Assembly (NCBI GenBank): GCA_019244185.1
Contig: JAFATB010000006.1
Span: forward strand, 416,001 to 480,000
Length of the DNA stretch: 64,000 nt
Direction of reading: 5' to 3'
Source: Acidobacteriota bacterium
GTDB lineage: Bacteria > Acidobacteriota > Thermoanaerobaculia > Gp7-AA8
The notes beneath the pieces are model-generated. The model was not told where the DNA came from, did not search any database, and was given only the letters and a program-made list of their open reading frames with translations. Positions 518 to 63,402 of the stretch are shown here, piece after piece (the first letter of the stretch is position 1; the number at the start of each line of letters is the position of its first letter). Position numbers and translations under genes: made by a program.

Positions 518-1500
518 GCGACCTCCAGGACGGCGGTGCCGGTCAACTCTCCACTGCGTAGAGCGCGCAGCGCGTCGTTGGCGCGTTCCAGCGGATACGC
601 GGTGCGCTGCGTTTCGATGCGCAGCGAGGCGAGGCGCGCGAAGAATGCGAGACCGTCGGCGCGCGTGAGATTCGCGACGGAGCGGAGGACGCGCTCGCCC
701 CAGAGGAGGGAGTACGGGAAGGATGGAAGGTCGGTCATGTGGATGCCCGCACAGACGACGGTGCCGCCCTTGCGGAGTTGCGTCAGCGCGGTCACGACGA
801 GCTCGCCGGCCGGCGCGAAGACGATCGCAGCGTCCAACTCGAAGGGGCGCTCGCTTGTTCCTCCGGACGTTGCTTTGCGGGCCGTCGTTCCTCCGGCCCA
901 GACTGCCCCCATCCTCCGCGCAAACTCCTGCGCCGCGAGGTCGCCGTCGCGCGTGAACGCGTACACCTCCGCGCCGTCGGCGCGCGCGACCTGCGCGAGG
1001 ATCTGCGCGGCCGAGCCGAAGCCGTAGAAGCCGATGCACTTCGCGCCGGCGATCATGCGATACGCGCGATATCCGATGAGCCCCGCGCACAGCAGCGGCG
1101 CGGCCTCGGCGGGCGTGTAGTCCTCGGGGATCGCGAAGCAGTAGCGCGCGTCGGCGGCGACGTACTCCGCGTAACCGCCGTCGCGCGTGTAGCCGGTGAA
1201 GCGCGCGCGGTCGCAGAGGTTCTCCTCGCCGGCGACGCAGAAGCGGCAAACGCCGCACGTCCAGCCGAGCCACGGCACGCCGAGGCGGCGGCCGGTGGCG
1301 ACGTCGACGCCGACGATCTGATGGCCGGGGATGAGCGGCAGCTTTGGCTCGGCGAGCTCGCCGTCGACGAGATGGAGATCGGTGCGGCAGACGGCGCAGC
1401 ATTCGACGCGCAGCAGCACCTCGCCCTCGCGCGCCTCCGGCATCGCGACGTCGGCCGCTTCCAACAGACTTCCCGGTTGCCGCAGGAGCATCGCGCGCAT
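514..1500 (-). CDS. Zinc-dependent alcohol dehydrogenase family protein
   Basis: MRAMLLRQPG..., CRTDLH, GHQIVG, CGVCRFC..C, GFYGFG; start coupled to MFS stop (TGATG). Confidence 0.92.
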   Translation of the reverse strand: MRAMLLRQPGSLLEAADVAMPEAREGEVLLRVECCAVCRTDLHLVDGELAEPKLPLIPGHQIVGVDVATGRRLGVPWLGWTCGVCRFCVAGEENLCDRARFTGYTRDGGYAEYVAADARYCFAIPEDYTPAEAAPLLCAGLIGYRAYRMIAGAKCIGFYGFGSAAQILAQVARADGAEVYAFTRDGDLAAQEFARRMGAVWAGGTTARKATSGGTSERPFELDAAIVFAPAGELVVTALTQLRKGGTVVCAGIHMTDLPSFPYSLLWGERVLRSVANLTRADGLAFFARLASLRIETQRTAYPLERANDALRALRSGELTGTAVLEVA

Positions 1501-2720
1501 CAGAGCTCGCGCAATTTTCGCAGGCGGGGCGCCCTCCAGGCCGTCATTGCTACAACGAGTAGAGTCATCGATCCGCCAAAAAGCACGGACGGAACGACGC
1601 CCAGCAGTCTTGCCGCCACGCCGGATTCGAACGCGCCGATCTCGTTCGACGAGCCGATGAAGATCTGGTTGACCGCCGACACGCGGCCGAGGAGATGCTC
1701 GGGCGTGCGCGTCTGCAGGAGCGTCGAGCGGATCACGACGCTCACGTTGTCGAAGACGCCGCTCACGAAGAGCAGACCGAACGACAGCCACGCGTTGCGC
1801 GAGAGCGCGAAGCCGATCATGCAGACGCCGAACGCGGCGACGCTGACGAACAGCGCCAAACCGGCCCGGCGCATCGGCGGGCGGTGCGCGATCCAGAGCC
1901 CGGTGAGGATCGAGCCGACGGCCGGCGCGGCGCGGAGAATGCCGAGACCTTGCGGACCGATGGCGAGCAGCGTCGCGAACGCGGGCAGGAGCGCGGTCGC
2001 GCCGCCGAAGAGCACCGCGAAGAGATCGAGCGTCATCGCCGCGAGCAGCATCGGCTCGCCCCACAGAAAGCGGATGCCGACGGTGAGGCTCTCGCCGAGC
2101 GGCTCGCGCTCGACCGCGGCGGGACGCACGCGATGTTCGATCGACGCGATGATGGCCACGGTCAACGCCATCGCCACGACCACGCAGCCGTAGCCGAGCG
2201 CCGGTCCCGAGAAACCGTAGAGCAGACCGCCCACCGCGGGGCCGATCACCGCCGCGAGCTGCCACGACGATGAACGCCACGCCACGGAGTTCGCGTACAG
2301 CTCGCGCGGCACGACCTCGGCGGACAACGCGACCGTCGCCGGCCGCATGAAACTGCGCGCGGTCGCGCTGAGCGCGATCACGACGTACACCGGCCAGACG
2401 CGATGCGCGTGGATCGCGCCCGGCGTGACCGTCAGCAGCAGCAGCGCGATGCCGGACAGCAGCAGGCCGAACGCGCTCGTCAGCGCCACCGTGCGCCGCA
2501 CCGCGCGATCGGCAATGTGACCGGCGTACAGCGCGACGGCGATGTACGGCAGCGCCTCCGCGAGTCCGATGAGGCCCAGCGTCAGCGGATCGCGCGTGAG
2601 CGCGAAGATCTGCCAGCCGACGACGACGATCTGCGCTTCGCGCGCGATGGTGATCGAGCCGTAGGCGAGCAGGATCCTGCGGAAGTCGCGGATTCGCAGC
2701 GACGCGTAGGGAGACGGCAC
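1500..2720 (-). CDS. MFS transporter
   Basis: About 12 hydrophobic segments, GHIADRAVRR motif A; start placed at GTG 2720. Confidence 0.88.
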   Translation of the reverse strand: MPSPYASLRIRDFRRILLAYGSITIAREAQIVVVGWQIFALTRDPLTLGLIGLAEALPYIAVALYAGHIADRAVRRTVALTSAFGLLLSGIALLLLTVTPGAIHAHRVWPVYVVIALSATARSFMRPATVALSAEVVPRELYANSVAWRSSSWQLAAVIGPAVGGLLYGFSGPALGYGCVVVAMALTVAIIASIEHRVRPAAVEREPLGESLTVGIRFLWGEPMLLAAMTLDLFAVLFGGATALLPAFATLLAIGPQGLGILRAAPAVGSILTGLWIAHRPPMRRAGLALFVSVAAFGVCMIGFALSRNAWLSFGLLFVSGVFDNVSVVIRSTLLQTRTPEHLLGRVSAVNQIFIGSSNEIGAFESGVAARLLGVVPSVLFGGSMTLLVVAMTAWRAPRLRKLREL

Positions 2721-4145: not shown

Positions 4146-4622
4146 TCACTCCTCGGCGAGGATGGCGTGCACGCCGAGCATCAGCGTCGCCGACGCGAGC
4201 ACGAACACGAGCGCGAGCACCGACAGCGACAGCGTCTGCGCGCGCGCGGCCGTCTCCAGCATGCCCGCGGGCGTGAAGCCGCGGATCCACCGCTCGACCG
4301 CCTCCCATTTCGCCATCAGCAGCCCGGCCCAGCCCGCGGCGACGAGGAGGTACGCGAGCATCTGCACGGCGTTGAGCGGGCGCGAGACGCGCGCGACGTC
4401 GGCGGGCGTGCGGATGAGCTGCGCCTTCAACCACACCAGTTGCGGATCGGGAAGGATGTGCTCGCGGTCGCTGATGCGCGCGAAGCGCTCCATCCACGGC
4501 GCGACCGACATCGCGGCGACGCAGTCGTCGCAGCCGGAGAGATGCTCGCGCAGCGCGTCCGTCCAGCGGTCGGCGGCGGCGGCGCGCAGCACCTCGCGTT
4601 CGTAGCGGCAACGCTCGCTCAT
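4146..4622 (-). CDS. Membrane-anchored zinc-binding anti-sigma factor
   Basis: HLSGCDDC (HxxxCxxC) followed by two TM helices; overlaps ECF sigma stop. Confidence 0.75.
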   Translation of the reverse strand: MSERCRYEREVLRAAAADRWTDALREHLSGCDDCVAAMSVAPWMERFARISDREHILPDPQLVWLKAQLIRTPADVARVSRPLNAVQMLAYLLVAAGWAGLLMAKWEAVERWIRGFTPAGMLETAARAQTLSLSVLALVFVLASATLMLGVHAILAEE

Positions 4623-22544: not shown

Positions 22545-22629
22545 GGTTGATTCCTGCCATGTGTAGCTCATTGGGTAGAGCGCAGGACTGATAATCCTGG
22601 GGTAGCGGGTTCGAATCCCGCCACAACCA
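22545..22629 (+). tRNA. tRNA-Ile(GAT)-like RNA with defective or interrupted acceptor stem
   Basis: D arm GCTC/GAGC, anticodon arm CAGGA-CTGATAA-TCCTG, T arm GCGGG-TTCGAAT-CCCGC; 3' strand CACAACC pairs only 4 bp with the adjacent 5' strand; no encoded CCA. Confidence 0.75.
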
Positions 22630-59697: not shown

Positions 59698-60405
59698 ATG
59701 CGAAAGAGTCTTGTGGTCTCGGTGTTTGCTTTGTTGTTGGTCACCGCGTCGGCGTTTGCGGGAGAGAAGCCGGCGATCGGCGTCGCTGAATTCAAGAACG
59801 AAACCTCCGCCTCCTGGTGGTATTCGGACGCGGCGAGCGATCTCGCCGGCATGCTGACGAACGAGCTCGCGAGCACGGGCAAGTTCAAGATCGTCGAGCG
59901 CGCGAAGCTCGGCCCCGTCCTCGACGAGCAGGATCTCGCCGAGTCCGGCCGCATCAAGAAGTCGACCGGCGCGAAGATCGGCAAGCTCACGGGCGCGAAG
60001 TACCTCGTGTTTGCGACGGTCAGCGCGTTCGACACGAAGAGCCGCGGCACCGGCGGCGCGCTGAGCTTCCGCGGCATCAGCGTCGGCGGCAAGAAAGAGG
60101 ACGCGTACATCGCCGTCGATCTCCGCGTCGTGGATACGACGACGGGCGAAGTCGAATACACGCGCACGGTCGAAGGCCGCGCGGCGAGCTACGGCATGTC
60201 GGGCGGCGTCTACCGCGGCGGCTTCGGCGGCGAGCTCGGAAAGTACGAGAACACGCCGACCGGCAAGGCGATCCGCGCCGTCATCGTCGAGATCAGCGAC
60301 TACCTCGCCTGCGCGATGGTCGAGCAGGGCAGCTGCATGGACGAGTACAACGCGAAGGAATCGAGCCGTCGCGAGAAGACCAAGAAAGCGATCAAGCTGG
60401 ACTAG
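59698..60405 (+). CDS. CsgG/HfaB family secreted protein
   Basis: Signal peptide; IGVAEF, FKIVERAKL..VLDEQ, VDLRVVDTTTGEV. Confidence 0.85.
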   Translation: MRKSLVVSVFALLLVTASAFAGEKPAIGVAEFKNETSASWWYSDAASDLAGMLTNELASTGKFKIVERAKLGPVLDEQDLAESGRIKKSTGAKIGKLTGAKYLVFATVSAFDTKSRGTGGALSFRGISVGGKKEDAYIAVDLRVVDTTTGEVEYTRTVEGRAASYGMSGGVYRGGFGGELGKYENTPTGKAIRAVIVEISDYLACAMVEQGSCMDEYNAKESSRREKTKKAIKLD

Positions 60406-60661: not shown

Positions 60662-61538
60662 CTACGCAACTGCGGCAAGCGTCCACAAATCGAGCGCGAG
60701 AAGGTCACTCGCCTTCCAAACATAGTCCGTCAGGCCAGCGGCCATCGCCGGAGTCTTCCCACCGAGCGACTTGTGCTTGCGGCAGAAGTTGTAGAAGACG
60801 ACGGTGATGGCGAGCATGAAGACGTGGTTGTCGAGCTTCTTCGAGAAGCCATTCGTGAGGCGCGTGAAGCGGCGGTTCTGCATCCGCAGCGTGAGGTTCC
60901 ACCGCTCCATGAACGACGTGGATATGTGCTTCGTGATCGGCATCCCGAACGTCGGTCGCTTCTCTACGGCCAGCAGGCGGCCGGGCGAGTATCTACTGGC
61001 CGCACTCCTCGGACTTGTTCCGGTGACCGGCTTACTGTTCGCGTACGTCTTCACCACCTCGGCATGATCGGCCTCGCCGTAGCGGAAGTTCTTCACGATG
61101 GCTTCGAGGTACACGGATAGGCCGTCGGTCGAAATCTGAAGGCGCATCGTCGTGCGGCATCTTCAGATCGCGAATCAGAGCGTCGGCCGCTTCCTGATTC
61201 CGGTCACTCACCATCCACGAGATGAGGAGCTTCGAGTCGGCGTCAAGCGCCGTCCACGTCCAGAGCGAGCCGTAACCTTCCTTGCCCTTCAGATCGGCCG
61301 GAACGTTCTTCTCCTTCGCGTAGCAGAACGACCAGACCTCATCACACTGCACGCGCAGCGTCGGCAGGTAGCGCACCTGAGCGTCATGGAAGCGAAGGCA
61401 CGCTTGACCAATCTCGCGGATGAGACTCAGCACCGTCATCTTCGCGGCGCCGGTCATGCGGCAGGTCGAGGCAATGGAGTTGCCTTCGATGAGGGCGGTC
61501 AGGATCTGCGCGCGCTTCGCAGGTGACAGCTTGTTCAT
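60662..61538 (-). pseudogene. IS1-family DDE transposase, frameshift near 61156
   Basis: HTH N-terminus, QCDEVW, ISTDG, STSFMERWNLTLR...RFTRLTNGFSKK; deleting one C in ATGCCGCACG fuses the two ORFs. Confidence 0.85.
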
Positions 61539-61544
61539 AACTAC

Positions 61545-61587
61545 AATATATGCTTGAGGGGTCAAGCTGTCAATGCTTGAGGGGTCA
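61545..61587 (-). promoter_or_regulatory. Leaderless transposase promoter with 15-bp direct repeats
   Basis: TTGACA-N17-TATATT-N6-ATG; ATGCTTGAGGGGTCA at 61550 and 61573. Confidence 0.75.
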
Positions 61588-61719
61588 CGCTACGCTATGT
61601 AACATGCCGGTCGGACGCGGATTACCGAAAGTAAGTTTGGTGTTGACCTGACGCGTAGACGGACCTACATTGTTACTGATAGCACCATGCTATCGGAGTC
61701 TTTTCTCAGTATCAAAAAG

Positions 61720-61793
61720 TGGCCCCGGCGGGGATCCAACCCGCGACATCCGCGTTAGCAGCGCGGCGTTCTGTGCACCTGAACTACGGGGCC
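61720..61793 (-). tRNA. Atypical tRNA, anticodon GCT (Ser) on a short-variable-loop body
   Basis: GGCCCCG/CGGGGCC, GTTC/GAAC, CCGCG-CTGCTAA-CGCGG, GCGGG-TTGGATC-CCCGC, A73. Confidence 0.8.
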
Positions 61794-61807
61794 ATAGGTG
61801 GTAAAGG

Positions 61808-61878
61808 TGGAGGTAGAGGGAATCGAACCCTCGGCCAGGGGTCCAAAGTCCGTAGCCGGGAAACCATCCACTACCCCC
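61808..61878 (-). tRNA. Atypical tRNA-like gene, anticodon TTG (Gln), G3:U70
   Basis: GGGGGTA/TACCTCC, mini D arm GGA-TGGTT-TCC, loop CTTTGGA, GAGGG-TTCGATT-CCCTC, A73. Confidence 0.7.
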
Positions 61879-61899
61879 ACGTTAGGGTTATCTGGCGCC

Positions 61900-62472
61900 T
61901 CACTCGTTAGCAGCGGGTGAGGCGTTTTCTTCTTCGTGCTCTTCATCATCATTGGCGGGGTCGTTGACTGCGCTAACGACTTCCGCTGCACCGCCCGCGG
62001 CACGCTTCTTCGTGCCCTTGCCACGCTTCAGGTGCGGGTAGAACTCGACCAAGCCGTAGTGTTCGTCAGGAAGTACCGCGACCTCGTACGTTGATCGCGC
62101 CATACGGACCTTCAGTTCACTCTCGTTGTCCACCTTGCAACCACCGCGACGAATGGCTTCCACAATCTCGCGGAACGGGCGCGCTTGCCCCCGTCGCTTC
62201 AGGTATCGCTTGGCGGCGTCGAGCCCGTCGAGGCCGTAATACTCGTCGGGCCGGATCGAGTAGCCTGACGCCCCGCTATCGGCAGTCGGCGCGTCCAAAC
62301 CGAAGAGTTGCGCGAGCGTACTCTTCGGTTGACCGACGATCTCCTCCAGTGCGTTAAGACCCTGCTGAAGCCGGAGCACTTCTGCCATGCTGGGGTCGGC
62401 TTTCATAGCCATAACTTTCTCGTCGATCTTCCTCTTTAGCTCCTCAGCGGCAGCCAAAATTGCATCACTCAT
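61900..62472 (-). CDS. Coiled-coil plus winged-helix-like protein with acidic tail
   Basis: GAGGA RBS; AAKRYLKRRGQARPFREIVEAIRRGG...YGLVEFY pattern. Confidence 0.7.
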   Translation of the reverse strand: MSDAILAAAEELKRKIDEKVMAMKADPSMAEVLRLQQGLNALEEIVGQPKSTLAQLFGLDAPTADSGASGYSIRPDEYYGLDGLDAAKRYLKRRGQARPFREIVEAIRRGGCKVDNESELKVRMARSTYEVAVLPDEHYGLVEFYPHLKRGKGTKKRAAGGAAEVVSAVNDPANDDEEHEEENASPAANE

Positions 62473-62491
62473 TTGATGTTCCTCATGTCAG

Positions 62492-62526
62492 AACCCAAAT
62501 GTAGGCTCGCGATTTTGGGTTGTCAA
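62492..62526 (-). promoter_or_regulatory. Sigma70 promoter with inverted-repeat operator
   Basis: TTGACA-N17-TACATT; AACCCAAA...TTTGGGTT overlaps it. Confidence 0.7.
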
Positions 62527-62637
62527 TATCCGATCTCAAACAAAACTTCGCAAGTTTGAGGCGATTGTCGCGAGAGGAATCATGCGAGGAGGGCGTATTT
62601 AGGACGCTGCCGGATAGTTTATTGCAGTTTAGTTTTC

Positions 62638-62803
62638 CAGACGAGCGCGGTGTACTCGCCCGATGACCGCAAGACATGACAAGCGGCTGAAATTGGCCGC
62701 GCGCTGAAGTCGCGCTGACGGAGGCATTTGCGACTTCGTTTCTGCGAAGTTCAGGCGCTTGTCATTTCTTGCGGTCATCGGGCGAGTACACCGCGCCTGT
62801 CTG
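62638..62803. repeat. Long near-perfect inverted repeat (hairpin)
   Basis: Arms of about 60 bp with about 6 mismatches, plus inner GAAGTCGC/GCGACTTC stem. Confidence 0.9.
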
Positions 62804-62821
62804 AAGGTGTTTTGACGAGTG

Positions 62822-63088
62822 TTATTTCCGACGCTTTTGCCAACGGGCGGTAGCGGCTTTCTTTGCAATCTCGGAGCGTTTTTTCGCGCTCAACGCAACG
62901 GCCCGAGCCGGCCCGCCGATCCTCCCGCCGATACGCCCGAACGCGGCGGCGGCAGCCCGCATCTCGTCCGTGATCTCGACCGGCGGCTCTTCCTCGGATT
63001 TCTCCGCGATCGTCTCCATGATACGGACGGCAGCCTGCGCCTCATCCTCGCGCTTCTTCCTCGGCTTCGTCCTTGACCCCTTAGGCAT
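62822..63088 (-). CDS. Small basic IS-associated protein
   Basis: AAAAFGRIGGRIGGPARAVALSAKKRSEIAKKAATARW; preceded by TATACT-N6-ATG. Confidence 0.85.
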   Translation of the reverse strand: MPKGSRTKPRKKREDEAQAAVRIMETIAEKSEEEPPVEITDEMRAAAAAFGRIGGRIGGPARAVALSAKKRSEIAKKAATARWQKRRK

Positions 63089-63106
63089 AACCTAAGTATA
63101 GGTTCA

Positions 63107-63337
63107 CTACCCGAGCTTGTCGAACGGCCGGAACAACTCCGACGGCGGAACGTCGAGCGCATCCGCCAGCTTGAGGATGTTGTCGAGACAAGGGTTCCGG
63201 TAGCCGCGCTCCACATCACTCACGTAGTTGCGATTCAGTCCGGCGAGTTCCGCGAGCCGCGTCTGTGAGAGTGAACGCTTCGCGCGCAGCTCGCGCAGGT
63301 GCGCGGCGAACCTCTCTCGCGGCGAAGCGGCGATCAT
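63107..63337 (-). CDS. XRE family HTH regulator
   Basis: LSQTRLAELAGLNRNYVSDVERGYRNPCLDNILKLADALDV. Confidence 0.9.
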   Translation of the reverse strand: MIAASPRERFAAHLRELRAKRSLSQTRLAELAGLNRNYVSDVERGYRNPCLDNILKLADALDVPPSELFRPFDKLG

Positions 63338-63402
63338 GCTTTGAGTGTGACGCTTTCGCGCGCTTAACCAACCAGCTATGAGTGTCACATGCTATGCGTG
63401 TT

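Follow-up and report, generated by a model that had tools for sequence, protein, structure and literature searches.

Irregular bacterial tRNAs and the WH190 cassette

Irregular tRNA genes arranged in polycistrons near toxin-antitoxin (TA) or transposon genes were described in Acidobacteria by Mukai et al. in 2017, and the text of that report further states that tRNAs with a G3:U70 pair and non-Ala anticodons insert alanine in Escherichia coli (PMC5389517). In the relevant passages of the same report and of a review, such tRNAs are proposed to act as missense or nonsense suppressors or as regulatory RNAs (PMC5389517; PMC7609411). Here, we analysed a 64,000-nt stretch of an Acidobacteriota genome (the window, G000:C6:416001-480000; host genome 5.3 Mb, 67% G+C) in which a promoter, a 190-aa open reading frame (ORF) named WH190 and two tRNA-shaped genes, RNA1 and RNA2, follow one another on the minus strand. 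The original prediction had proposed a promoter, an inverted repeat, a 190-aa ORF and two tRNA-shaped genes with spacings of 21 and 14 nt, and each of these elements was located where it had been placed on the minus strand. The cassette consists of the following features:

62498-62526, minus strand: sigma-70-type promoter TTGACA-N17-TACATT (TTGACA at 62526-62521, 17-nt spacer, TACATT at 62503-62498), with 10 of 12 hexamer matches
62492-62521, no strand: putative operator, inverted repeat AACCCAAA-N14-TTTGGGTT, overlapping the promoter spacer and the -10 hexamer
61900-62472, minus strand: ORF of WH190, 190 aa, with GAGGA 8 nt ahead of its ATG
61896-61924, minus strand: hairpin spanning the WH190 stop codon, with an 8-bp plus 2-bp stem and the 7-nt loop CUGCUAA
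61805-61878, minus strand: RNA1, tRNA-like, with an Ala-type acceptor and a UUG loop (hand and model fold)
61720-61793, minus strand: RNA2, class-I cloverleaf tRNA with anticodon GCU and no encoded CCA (Rfam, ARAGORN)

RNA1 begins 21 nt after the WH190 stop codon, and RNA2 begins 14 nt after the RNA1 discriminator A (61808), a distance of 11 nt if counted from the encoded CCU. We tentatively read the cassette as a pair of chargeable missense tRNAs under WH190 control, an interpretation that we place somewhat short of probable. A strong, probably auto-repressed promoter would transcribe WH190 and then the two tRNAs, which would be cut from the transcript; RNA2 would be charged with arginine and pair with the Ser codons AGC and AGU (Ser to Arg), while RNA1 would receive alanine and, provided that its shape is tolerated on the ribosome, would pair with CAA and CAG (Gln to Ala). 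In this scheme, the cassette would constitute a mobile, regulated source of missense. Natural tRNAs that join the charging signals of one amino acid to the anticodon of another are rare.

As far as the text of the 2017 report describes them, the acidobacterial polycistrons and the present cassette are both soil-bacterial, linked to mobile or TA genes, and composed of tandem non-canonical tRNAs whose identity elements and anticodons do not match. RNA1 and RNA2 lie in tandem 11-14 nt apart and are bridged by contigs from RNA libraries, which cannot by themselves prove a shared transcript, and their neighbours include an insertion sequence (IS) together with XRE and HicB-like genes. Allo-tRNAs, which the same text defines by a 12-bp acceptor branch of the 8/4 or 9/3 type and a long variable arm (PMC5389517), are a different matter: RNA1 and RNA2 are both 7/5 without a long variable arm and are thus not allo-tRNAs. 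Within the compared text, to which the figures and supplements do not belong, there is no Arg body with an AGY anticodon, no RNA1 architecture, no WH190 or GGRW88 (an accompanying 88-aa protein), no IS1/IS1595 synteny and no anticodon-loop mimic. To the extent of that text, the cassette can be grouped with the irregular acidobacterial tRNAs that Mukai et al. described, in a new variant form. The original prediction knew of no described system with this layout, a claim that needs narrowing: the polycistrons and the G3:U70 non-Ala tRNAs were already known, and only the exact WH190 layout is missing from the text compared (PMC5389517). Our literature search, which did not extend to figures and supplements, returned nothing on Arg-identity tRNAs with AGY anticodons, on the WH190 family or on the loop mimic.

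A second comparison is offered by tRNAProX of Streptomyces and Kitasatospora, which combines Pro identity with Ala, Asn or Thr anticodons and is taken, in the portion of the source concerned, as a device of deliberate mistranslation (PMC11415595). On that portion, tRNAProX and the RNAs described here are alike in being natural bacterial tRNAs that mix one identity set with another anticodon. tRNAProX is paired with a dedicated synthetase variant. The island in the window, in contrast, holds no synthetase gene, and neither a transposon nor a winged-helix partner is described for tRNAProX in the compared portion of its source.

RNA2 combines an Arg-type tRNA body with a Ser AGY anticodon

RNA2 scored 60.7 bits (E 2.6e-12) on the Rfam tRNA model and was called by ARAGORN as a 75-nt 'Ser' tRNA with anticodon GCU, a 5-nt variable loop and A73. 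Bacterial tRNA-Ser requires a long variable arm and G73; RNA2 has neither, and the genuine tRNA-Ser(GCU) of the host, 94 nt in length, is encoded at C14:270000. The identity set of bacterial arginyl-tRNA synthetase (ArgRS) comprises A/G73, G2-C71, C3-G70, A20, C35 and U/G36 (PMC9976931 Table 1), and RNA2 carries it in full (A73, G2-C71, C3-G70, A20, C35 and U36). Its acceptor, GGCCCCG/CGGGGCC followed by A73, has the stem and discriminator of the host tRNA-Arg(CCU). The D loop, AGGUGCACA, places A at position 20, a column invariant in six of six aligned sequences, and C35 and U36 of the anticodon loop CUGCUAA are invariant in the same proportion. This loop differs from that of the host tRNA-Arg(UCU) only at position 34. 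Compared with bacterial tRNA-Arg of the CCU/UCU type, RNA2 thus has the same body, acceptor stem, A20, C35, U36, A37, A38 and A73, whereas its G34 (A34 in its relatives) makes it match the Ser AGY rather than the Arg AGR codons; GCU is not an Arg anticodon and pairs with AGC and AGU. Because the ArgRS determinants are retained but position 34 is G, RNA2 should be charged with arginine and read AGC and AGU. According to the relevant part of a study in E. coli extract, ACU and GCU anticodons grafted onto foreign tRNA bodies read AGU and AGC (PMC6158751).

The closest match to RNA2 among 401 genomes of the phylum was a tRNA-Arg(CCU) (83% over 77 nt, E 9.6e-16), with which it also shares an unusual C19/G56 elbow (D-loop GC and T-loop UUGG). 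Judged by these resemblances, RNA2 descends from a tRNA-Arg(CCU)-type gene. Host tRNA genes encode CCA, whereas RNA2 does not.

Elements with class-I bodies, A20, C35 and U36 and an ACU or GCU anticodon numbered five distinct cases including the window, and none carried UCU or CCU. In this set, 88% of cells in the cloverleaf were paired and 12 of the 21 pairs had changed on both sides, a result equalled by none of 500 shuffles, so that the covariation named in the original prediction as a check is indeed present. The counterpart of RNA2 in L010, a locus of a related metagenome genome (L009/L010), has diverged at about one-third of its positions with compensatory pairs and a swapped 19:56 tertiary pair.

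RNA1 is a constrained tRNA-like RNA with an Ala-type acceptor

The acceptor of RNA1 is a 7-bp stem, GGGGGUA/UACCUCC followed by A, which includes G3:U70 and A73 and is succeeded by CCU. Its core consists of a 3-bp D hairpin (loop UGGUU) and a 9-bp stem with C.C and A.C mismatches, without a variable loop, and its T arm is canonical. The 9-bp stem closes in the loop CUUUGGA, which contains U33 and is identical to the loop of the host tRNA-Gln(UUG). ARAGORN made no call at default settings and reported a tRNA-Gln(UUG) at a 90% threshold. G3:U70 together with A73 is the determinant of alanyl-tRNA synthetase (AlaRS), and RNA1 has both along with G2-C71 and G4-C69, whereas it departs from tRNA-Ala in lacking a canonical cloverleaf, G20 and an Ala anticodon. 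Because the AlaRS determinants are kept together with a UUG loop, RNA1 should be charged with alanine and, if its shape is tolerated on the ribosome, read CAA and CAG. The original prediction that neither RNA carries the identity set of its own anticodon is thereby borne out, with a full ArgRS set in RNA2 and an AlaRS set above a UUG loop in RNA1.

RNA1 is identical to its L010 counterpart at 72 of 74 nt, while the spacers on both sides have diverged and the synonymous divergence (dS) of the adjacent ORF is 1.1. Covariance model R1 recovered relatives in L009/L010, L068 (weak) and L077; scanned over 101 genomes, it gave matches in 28, and the four loci inspected comprised one RNA1-like RNA and three ordinary tRNAs. 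The L077 homologue, from another family of the phylum, scored 52 bits and retains G3:U70 and A73-C-C. This RNA lacks a D stem, and its long stem is re-paired by compensatory changes, yet the 14 nt around the loop are unchanged, including the A.C closing mismatch. It is flanked by an IS1595 transposase and by an ORF that resembles XRE/ImmA by eye only, without a family-library scan. The weaker relative in L068 has a weak T stem and adjoins a distant WH190 gene. Across the four RNA1-type RNAs, G3:U70 and A73-C-C are present in all four, with a variable following base; 97.6% of cells are paired, and both sides have changed in 5 of 22 pairs, counts that lean towards the model since the alignment was fitted to it. 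A 20-nt RNA1 word had no exact match in genome contigs or viral contigs.

We also considered RNA1 as a minimal transfer-messenger RNA (tmRNA), charged with alanine and bound by SmpB, that would compete with or modify trans-translation. The Rfam tmRNA model RF00023 aligned both ends of RNA1 at 39.6 bits (E 5.8e-14); 26 nt stand where the model has 328 positions. RNA1 resembles the tRNA-like domain of tmRNA in its Ala-type G3:U70 acceptor, its T arm, its reduced D region (stemless in L077) and a long helix that replaces the anticodon and variable arms and meets the T arm without a variable loop. RNA1 is not a deletion of the host's own tmRNA, which was found by ARAGORN with the tag ANSDFALAA and differs in sequence. 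The score, however, falls below the Rfam gathering score of 47, and the host tRNA-Ala(GGC) similarly obtained 32.6 bits, so that the signal is mostly that of an Ala-type acceptor and T arm. RNA1 moreover has no message domain, resume codon, tag frame or pseudoknots, and its helix ends in a 7-nt anticodon-type loop with U33. A tmRNA function is accordingly highly improbable, and, because the host tRNA-Ala(GGC) scores on the tmRNA model as well, we treat RNA1 as a tRNA-like RNA of presumed Ala identity rather than as a tmRNA.

In L068 (genome G158), the distant WH190 gene faces an inverted partial copy of its own winged-helix part, the two occupying 868-1182 (minus strand) and 1342-1893 (plus strand), and the RNA1-like RNA sits between the gene and this duplicate.

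Evidence bearing on decoding and expression

Several observations weigh against a missense function. AGC is common in the host (14.9 per 1000 codons), and Ser to Arg substitution driven from a strong promoter should therefore be harmful. Of the 10 Ser codons in WH190 itself, 6 are AGY, and no conserved transposase Arg is AGY-coded. RNA1 is non-canonical, with its omission by ARAGORN at default, its two long-stem mismatches and its missing G20. When RNA2 is simply aligned with the host tRNAs, its D and T arms are nearer tRNA-Asp than tRNA-Arg, although RNA2 has no Asp determinants. In the text of the 2017 report, other irregular tRNAs of a similar kind were charged yet did not decode in E. coli (PMC5389517). 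An mRNA element that mimics the anticodon loop of RNA2, described below, favours a binding factor over decoding.

As to expression, two RNA libraries from two studies yielded contigs over 61714-61924 and 61737-61889. These reach across both RNAs without taking in the ORF, and one starts at the first base of the stop-codon hairpin. Such contigs may hold DNA, and transcript ends cannot be read from them, which likewise counts against the proposed missense function; they give a weak hint that both RNAs are expressed. Three DNA runs contain the whole stretch and may be its source.

The stop-codon hairpin repeats the anticodon loop of RNA2

The loop of the hairpin that spans the WH190 stop codon, CUGCUAA, is identical to the anticodon loop of RNA2. 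This stop-codon hairpin with an RNA2-identical loop is a new feature of the present locus. L010 and L024, the latter encoding a protein 41% identical to WH190, have the same hairpin with the loop CUACUAA, in agreement with their ACU tRNAs; the covariation between hairpin and anticodon amounts to one G/A co-change over three elements. In L027 and L066, the hairpins immediately downstream of the WH190 gene also have GCUAA loops. In the 5.3-Mb genome, CTGCTAA occurs only 22 times, both strands counted. As an alternative at the DNA level, the two sites could be recombination sites with a shared 7-bp core; no recombinase gene was recognised among the scanned ORFs of the island.

These loops bear on the main rival explanation, in which the RNAs would be non-decoding tRNA mimics that act as decoys, sponges or regulators. 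RNA2 and the stop-codon hairpin would present the RCUAA loop, and RNA1 its fixed ACUUUGGAC loop, to a binding partner, candidates for which are WH190, a synthetase, a modification enzyme or, within a TA or competition system, an anticodon-loop nuclease. The shared loop and its joint G to A change in L010 and L024, the GCUAA loops of L027 and L066, and the unchanged 14 nt around the RNA1 loop in distant L077 are all consistent with such a role, as are the XRE repressors and the HicB-like UPF0150 protein near the cassette, the RNA-binding SelB winged helices among the weak fold matches of WH190, and the charged, non-decoding irregular tRNAs near TA loci in the text of Mukai et al. (PMC5389517). 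Against it, the loop covariation is a single G/A change in three elements, family-library scans of the island ORFs revealed neither a nuclease nor a toxin gene, and most WH190 loci have other tRNAs or none. A plain tRNA-Arg decoy would also not require A or G at position 34 in five of five elements, and the conservation of A73-C-C in the RNA1 family together with the complete synthetase identity sets suggests that charging matters. We regard mimicry as possible but doubtful.

A more specific proposal is that WH190 binds the RCUAA anticodon-type loop both of a tRNA that accepts arginine and reads AGY and of its own mRNA's stop-codon hairpin, in a TA-like module with the tRNA as the 'toxin'. The miscoding tRNA would then be the harmful part, WH190 would restrain both the tRNA and its own dosage, and the cassette would serve IS1/IS1595 transposons as a control or addiction module made of a protein and a tRNA. 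This proposal is unlikely.

Whichever way the RNAs act, the locus offers a compact bench system, with one promoter, a widespread unnamed protein family, an Arg-type tRNA for Ser codons, a strongly constrained Ala-type RNA and an mRNA hairpin that copies a tRNA anticodon loop. If the RNAs decode, regulated miscoding would be spread from one soil bacterium to another by transposons; otherwise, the RNAs would form a new class of tRNA mimics that have a dedicated partner. Either outcome would account for the irregular Acidobacteria tRNAs reported in 2017.

WH190 belongs to a widespread unnamed family

In an AlphaFold2 model of WH190 (pLDDT 77.9), a helical hairpin at the N terminus precedes a winged-helix-like domain (residues 83-141), and the tail is disordered, first basic and then acidic. 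Within the domain, helices at 83-94, 100-109 and 117-126 are followed by strands at 131-134 and 138-141, and the block has a pLDDT of 87-94. Foldseek returned weak winged-helix matches (E of at least 0.017), namely RpoE delta, Rok and the SelB winged helix, and HARE-HTH was found in 11% of members of the neighbouring Atlas cluster; no match was found in Pfam, PHROG, NCBIfam or PDB sequences. The C-terminal half models as a winged helix, in line with the winged-helix protein of the original prediction, though the fold matches are weak.

Homologues comprised 24 close sequences and, by profile, 959 cluster representatives (E at most 0.001), all unnamed. WH190 is under purifying selection, with a nonsynonymous-to-synonymous ratio (dN/dS) of 0.096 against L010. 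The profile matched 5 of the 401 phylum genomes, the host included. The 861-nt cassette was absent from the 400 other genomes of this sample, in which only short tRNA- or tmRNA-like matches occurred. In genome contigs, 37 pattern matches occurred, none of which was confirmed, and plasmid and phage collections gave no match.

The metagenome scan yielded 36 WH190 loci, or 28 distinct loci after merging of identical downstream sequence. tRNA-like genes lie beside the WH190 gene in 10 of these 28; in 7 of the 23 distinct loci with visible downstream sequence they share the strand of WH190 and are no more than 300 nt from its stop, so the adjacency that the original prediction proposed to look for among homologues does recur. 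Other loci carry class-II bodies with Gly, Glu, Pro or ochre anticodons, or tRNA-model matches of 104-113 nt.

The inverted repeat at the promoter has 8-nt arms, equalled by 1% of 200 shuffles, and is a putative operator. In L010, both promoter hexamers are kept with a different spacer, while the inverted repeat is degraded and a different one is present upstream. An operator as a trait of the whole family was rejected: over 21 upstream regions the best repeat averaged 5.19 nt against 4.45 in shuffled sequence, and family-wide operator co-variation was dropped with just 3 of the 21 at or below 5%. Promoter-like sites are frequent across 61400-63200, with 6 seen against 0.5 expected.

Transposon context

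The surroundings of the cassette contain the following features:

60662-61565, minus strand: IS1-family transposase with a frameshift near residue 150 (ORFs 61565-61032 and 61147-60662)
61545-61587, minus strand: transposase promoter TTGACA-N17-TATATT, flanked by two direct ATGCTTGAGGGGTCA copies
62822-63088, minus strand: GGRW88, an 88-aa protein that accompanies WH190, present in 9 of the 36 metagenome loci and in the window
63107-63388, minus strand: XRE-family helix-turn-helix repressor, common to L009/L010

The sole family match of GGRW88 is PHROG 2384, whose function is not known, and a HicB-like UPF0150 protein is a further neighbour within the island. ORF clustering revealed a recurring order of GGRW88, WH190, tRNAs or else a hairpin (in some cases with a small ORF), and transposase, in which the transposases beside WH190 genes are IS1-like or IS1595. 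In L015, 32-nt inverted repeats (448-479 and 4534-4565; 88% complementary) enclose a 4.1-kb unit with an ACU tRNA, WH190, a class-II UGG tRNA and an IS1595 transposase, and thus bracket the transposase, WH190 and tRNAs together. Textbook IS1 and IS1595 members are not known to carry genes other than the transposase. The window copy differs further in being frameshifted and without detectable terminal repeats: none were found around its island, and its DDE transposase is not intact, scoring 15.4 bits on DDE_Tnp_IS1 (cut-off 24.1), while an intact relative in L066 passes Pfam with 28 bits. L009/L010 has the same host flanks as 59926-65358 with the island inverted. Transposase synteny and the L015 repeats around a whole unit agree with the original prediction of IS cargo, and cargo of a decayed IS1-type transposon island is the best explanation of the region.

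Transposase genes are also broken near residue 91 in L010, by a TAG at W119 in L013 and near residue 132 in a second host copy. We read these breaks as damage, rather than programmed frameshifting, because their positions differ (150, 132, 91 and a stop at 119). Recoding of the transposase by the cassette's own tRNAs was likewise rejected: no conserved Arg column is consistently AGY-coded in the elements with NCU tRNAs, and the stop in L013 is TAG, yet its tRNA is GCU.

The broken transposases could suggest that captured tRNA genes are decaying within a dead transposon and that the RNAs are relics, functionless now. The loss of terminal repeats around the window's island, the two mismatches in the anticodon stem of the L009/L010 ACU tRNA and the weak T stem of the L068 relative point the same way. 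Such decay is difficult to reconcile with 72 of 74 RNA1 nucleotides kept between diverged spacers, an RNA2 fold maintained by compensatory changes including the 19:56 swap, the dN/dS of WH190, the conserved promoter hexamers and RNA-library contigs over both RNAs, and we consider it very unlikely.

The position of the RNAs between WH190 and the transposase also raises a role as transposon punctuation, in which cleavage by RNase P and RNase Z would detach the WH190 message from transposase read-through, the identity elements would be leftovers, and relatives would use a terminator hairpin at the same spot. This slot holds tRNA-like genes in 7 of 23 loci and otherwise a GC-rich hairpin, alone or accompanied by a small ORF, and the transposase has a promoter of its own. 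Punctuation would need shape alone, yet RNA1 is nearly unchanged across a dS of 1.1, NCU anticodons with A20, C35 and U36 recur in five elements, and several tRNAs lie upstream on the opposite strand rather than between the genes. On balance, this role is quite unlikely, and the chargeable missense tRNAs proposed above remain our preferred reading.

Further observations

In L031, L034-L037 and L066, where no tRNA follows WH190, the gene is followed by a hairpin and then an ORF of about 30 codons that ends in V/I-I-T-I-D/E-I-P (for example, L066:2125-2211). The L015 unit also holds a protein that is KilA-N-like, and adjoins a gene that is trmFO-like, both by eye only and without a family-library scan. 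The host genes that flank the island in the window and in L009/L010 are a lipoprotein gene (ending at 60405) and lexA. The second host IS1-like transposase (G000:C6:199153-199933), also frameshifted, has no WH190 beside it.

The 15-nt ATGCTTGAGGGGTCA occurs as direct copies at 61550-61564 and 61573-61587 around the transposase -35 hexamer, and a third copy, inverted and with 2 mismatches, covers the GGRW88 start codon at 63074-63088; the motif may be the binding site of a regulator or of the transposase. Between the WH190 promoter and GGRW88 lies a palindrome (62638-62803) with 60-nt arms that are 90% complementary and 46 nt apart. It was rejected as a miniature inverted-repeat transposable element, being single-copy in the genome and missing from related loci. 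On the plus strand, a promoter-like TTGACC-N17-TACATT (61643-61671) and a terminator-like hairpin (61894-61926; weak Rfam ctRNA-type match, E 0.041) would frame an antisense transcript over RNA2 and RNA1.

Odd-length ARAGORN calls elsewhere in the host genome look like false positives within coding DNA and were set aside. At 22560-22625 on the plus strand, the window contains a tRNA-like gene overlooked by ARAGORN, with anticodon GAU (Ile) and a score of 57.9 bits on the Rfam tRNA model over model positions 4-67 only; the host assembly has no second tRNA-Ile. Its 5' acceptor strand is apparently broken by about 10-12 extra bases.

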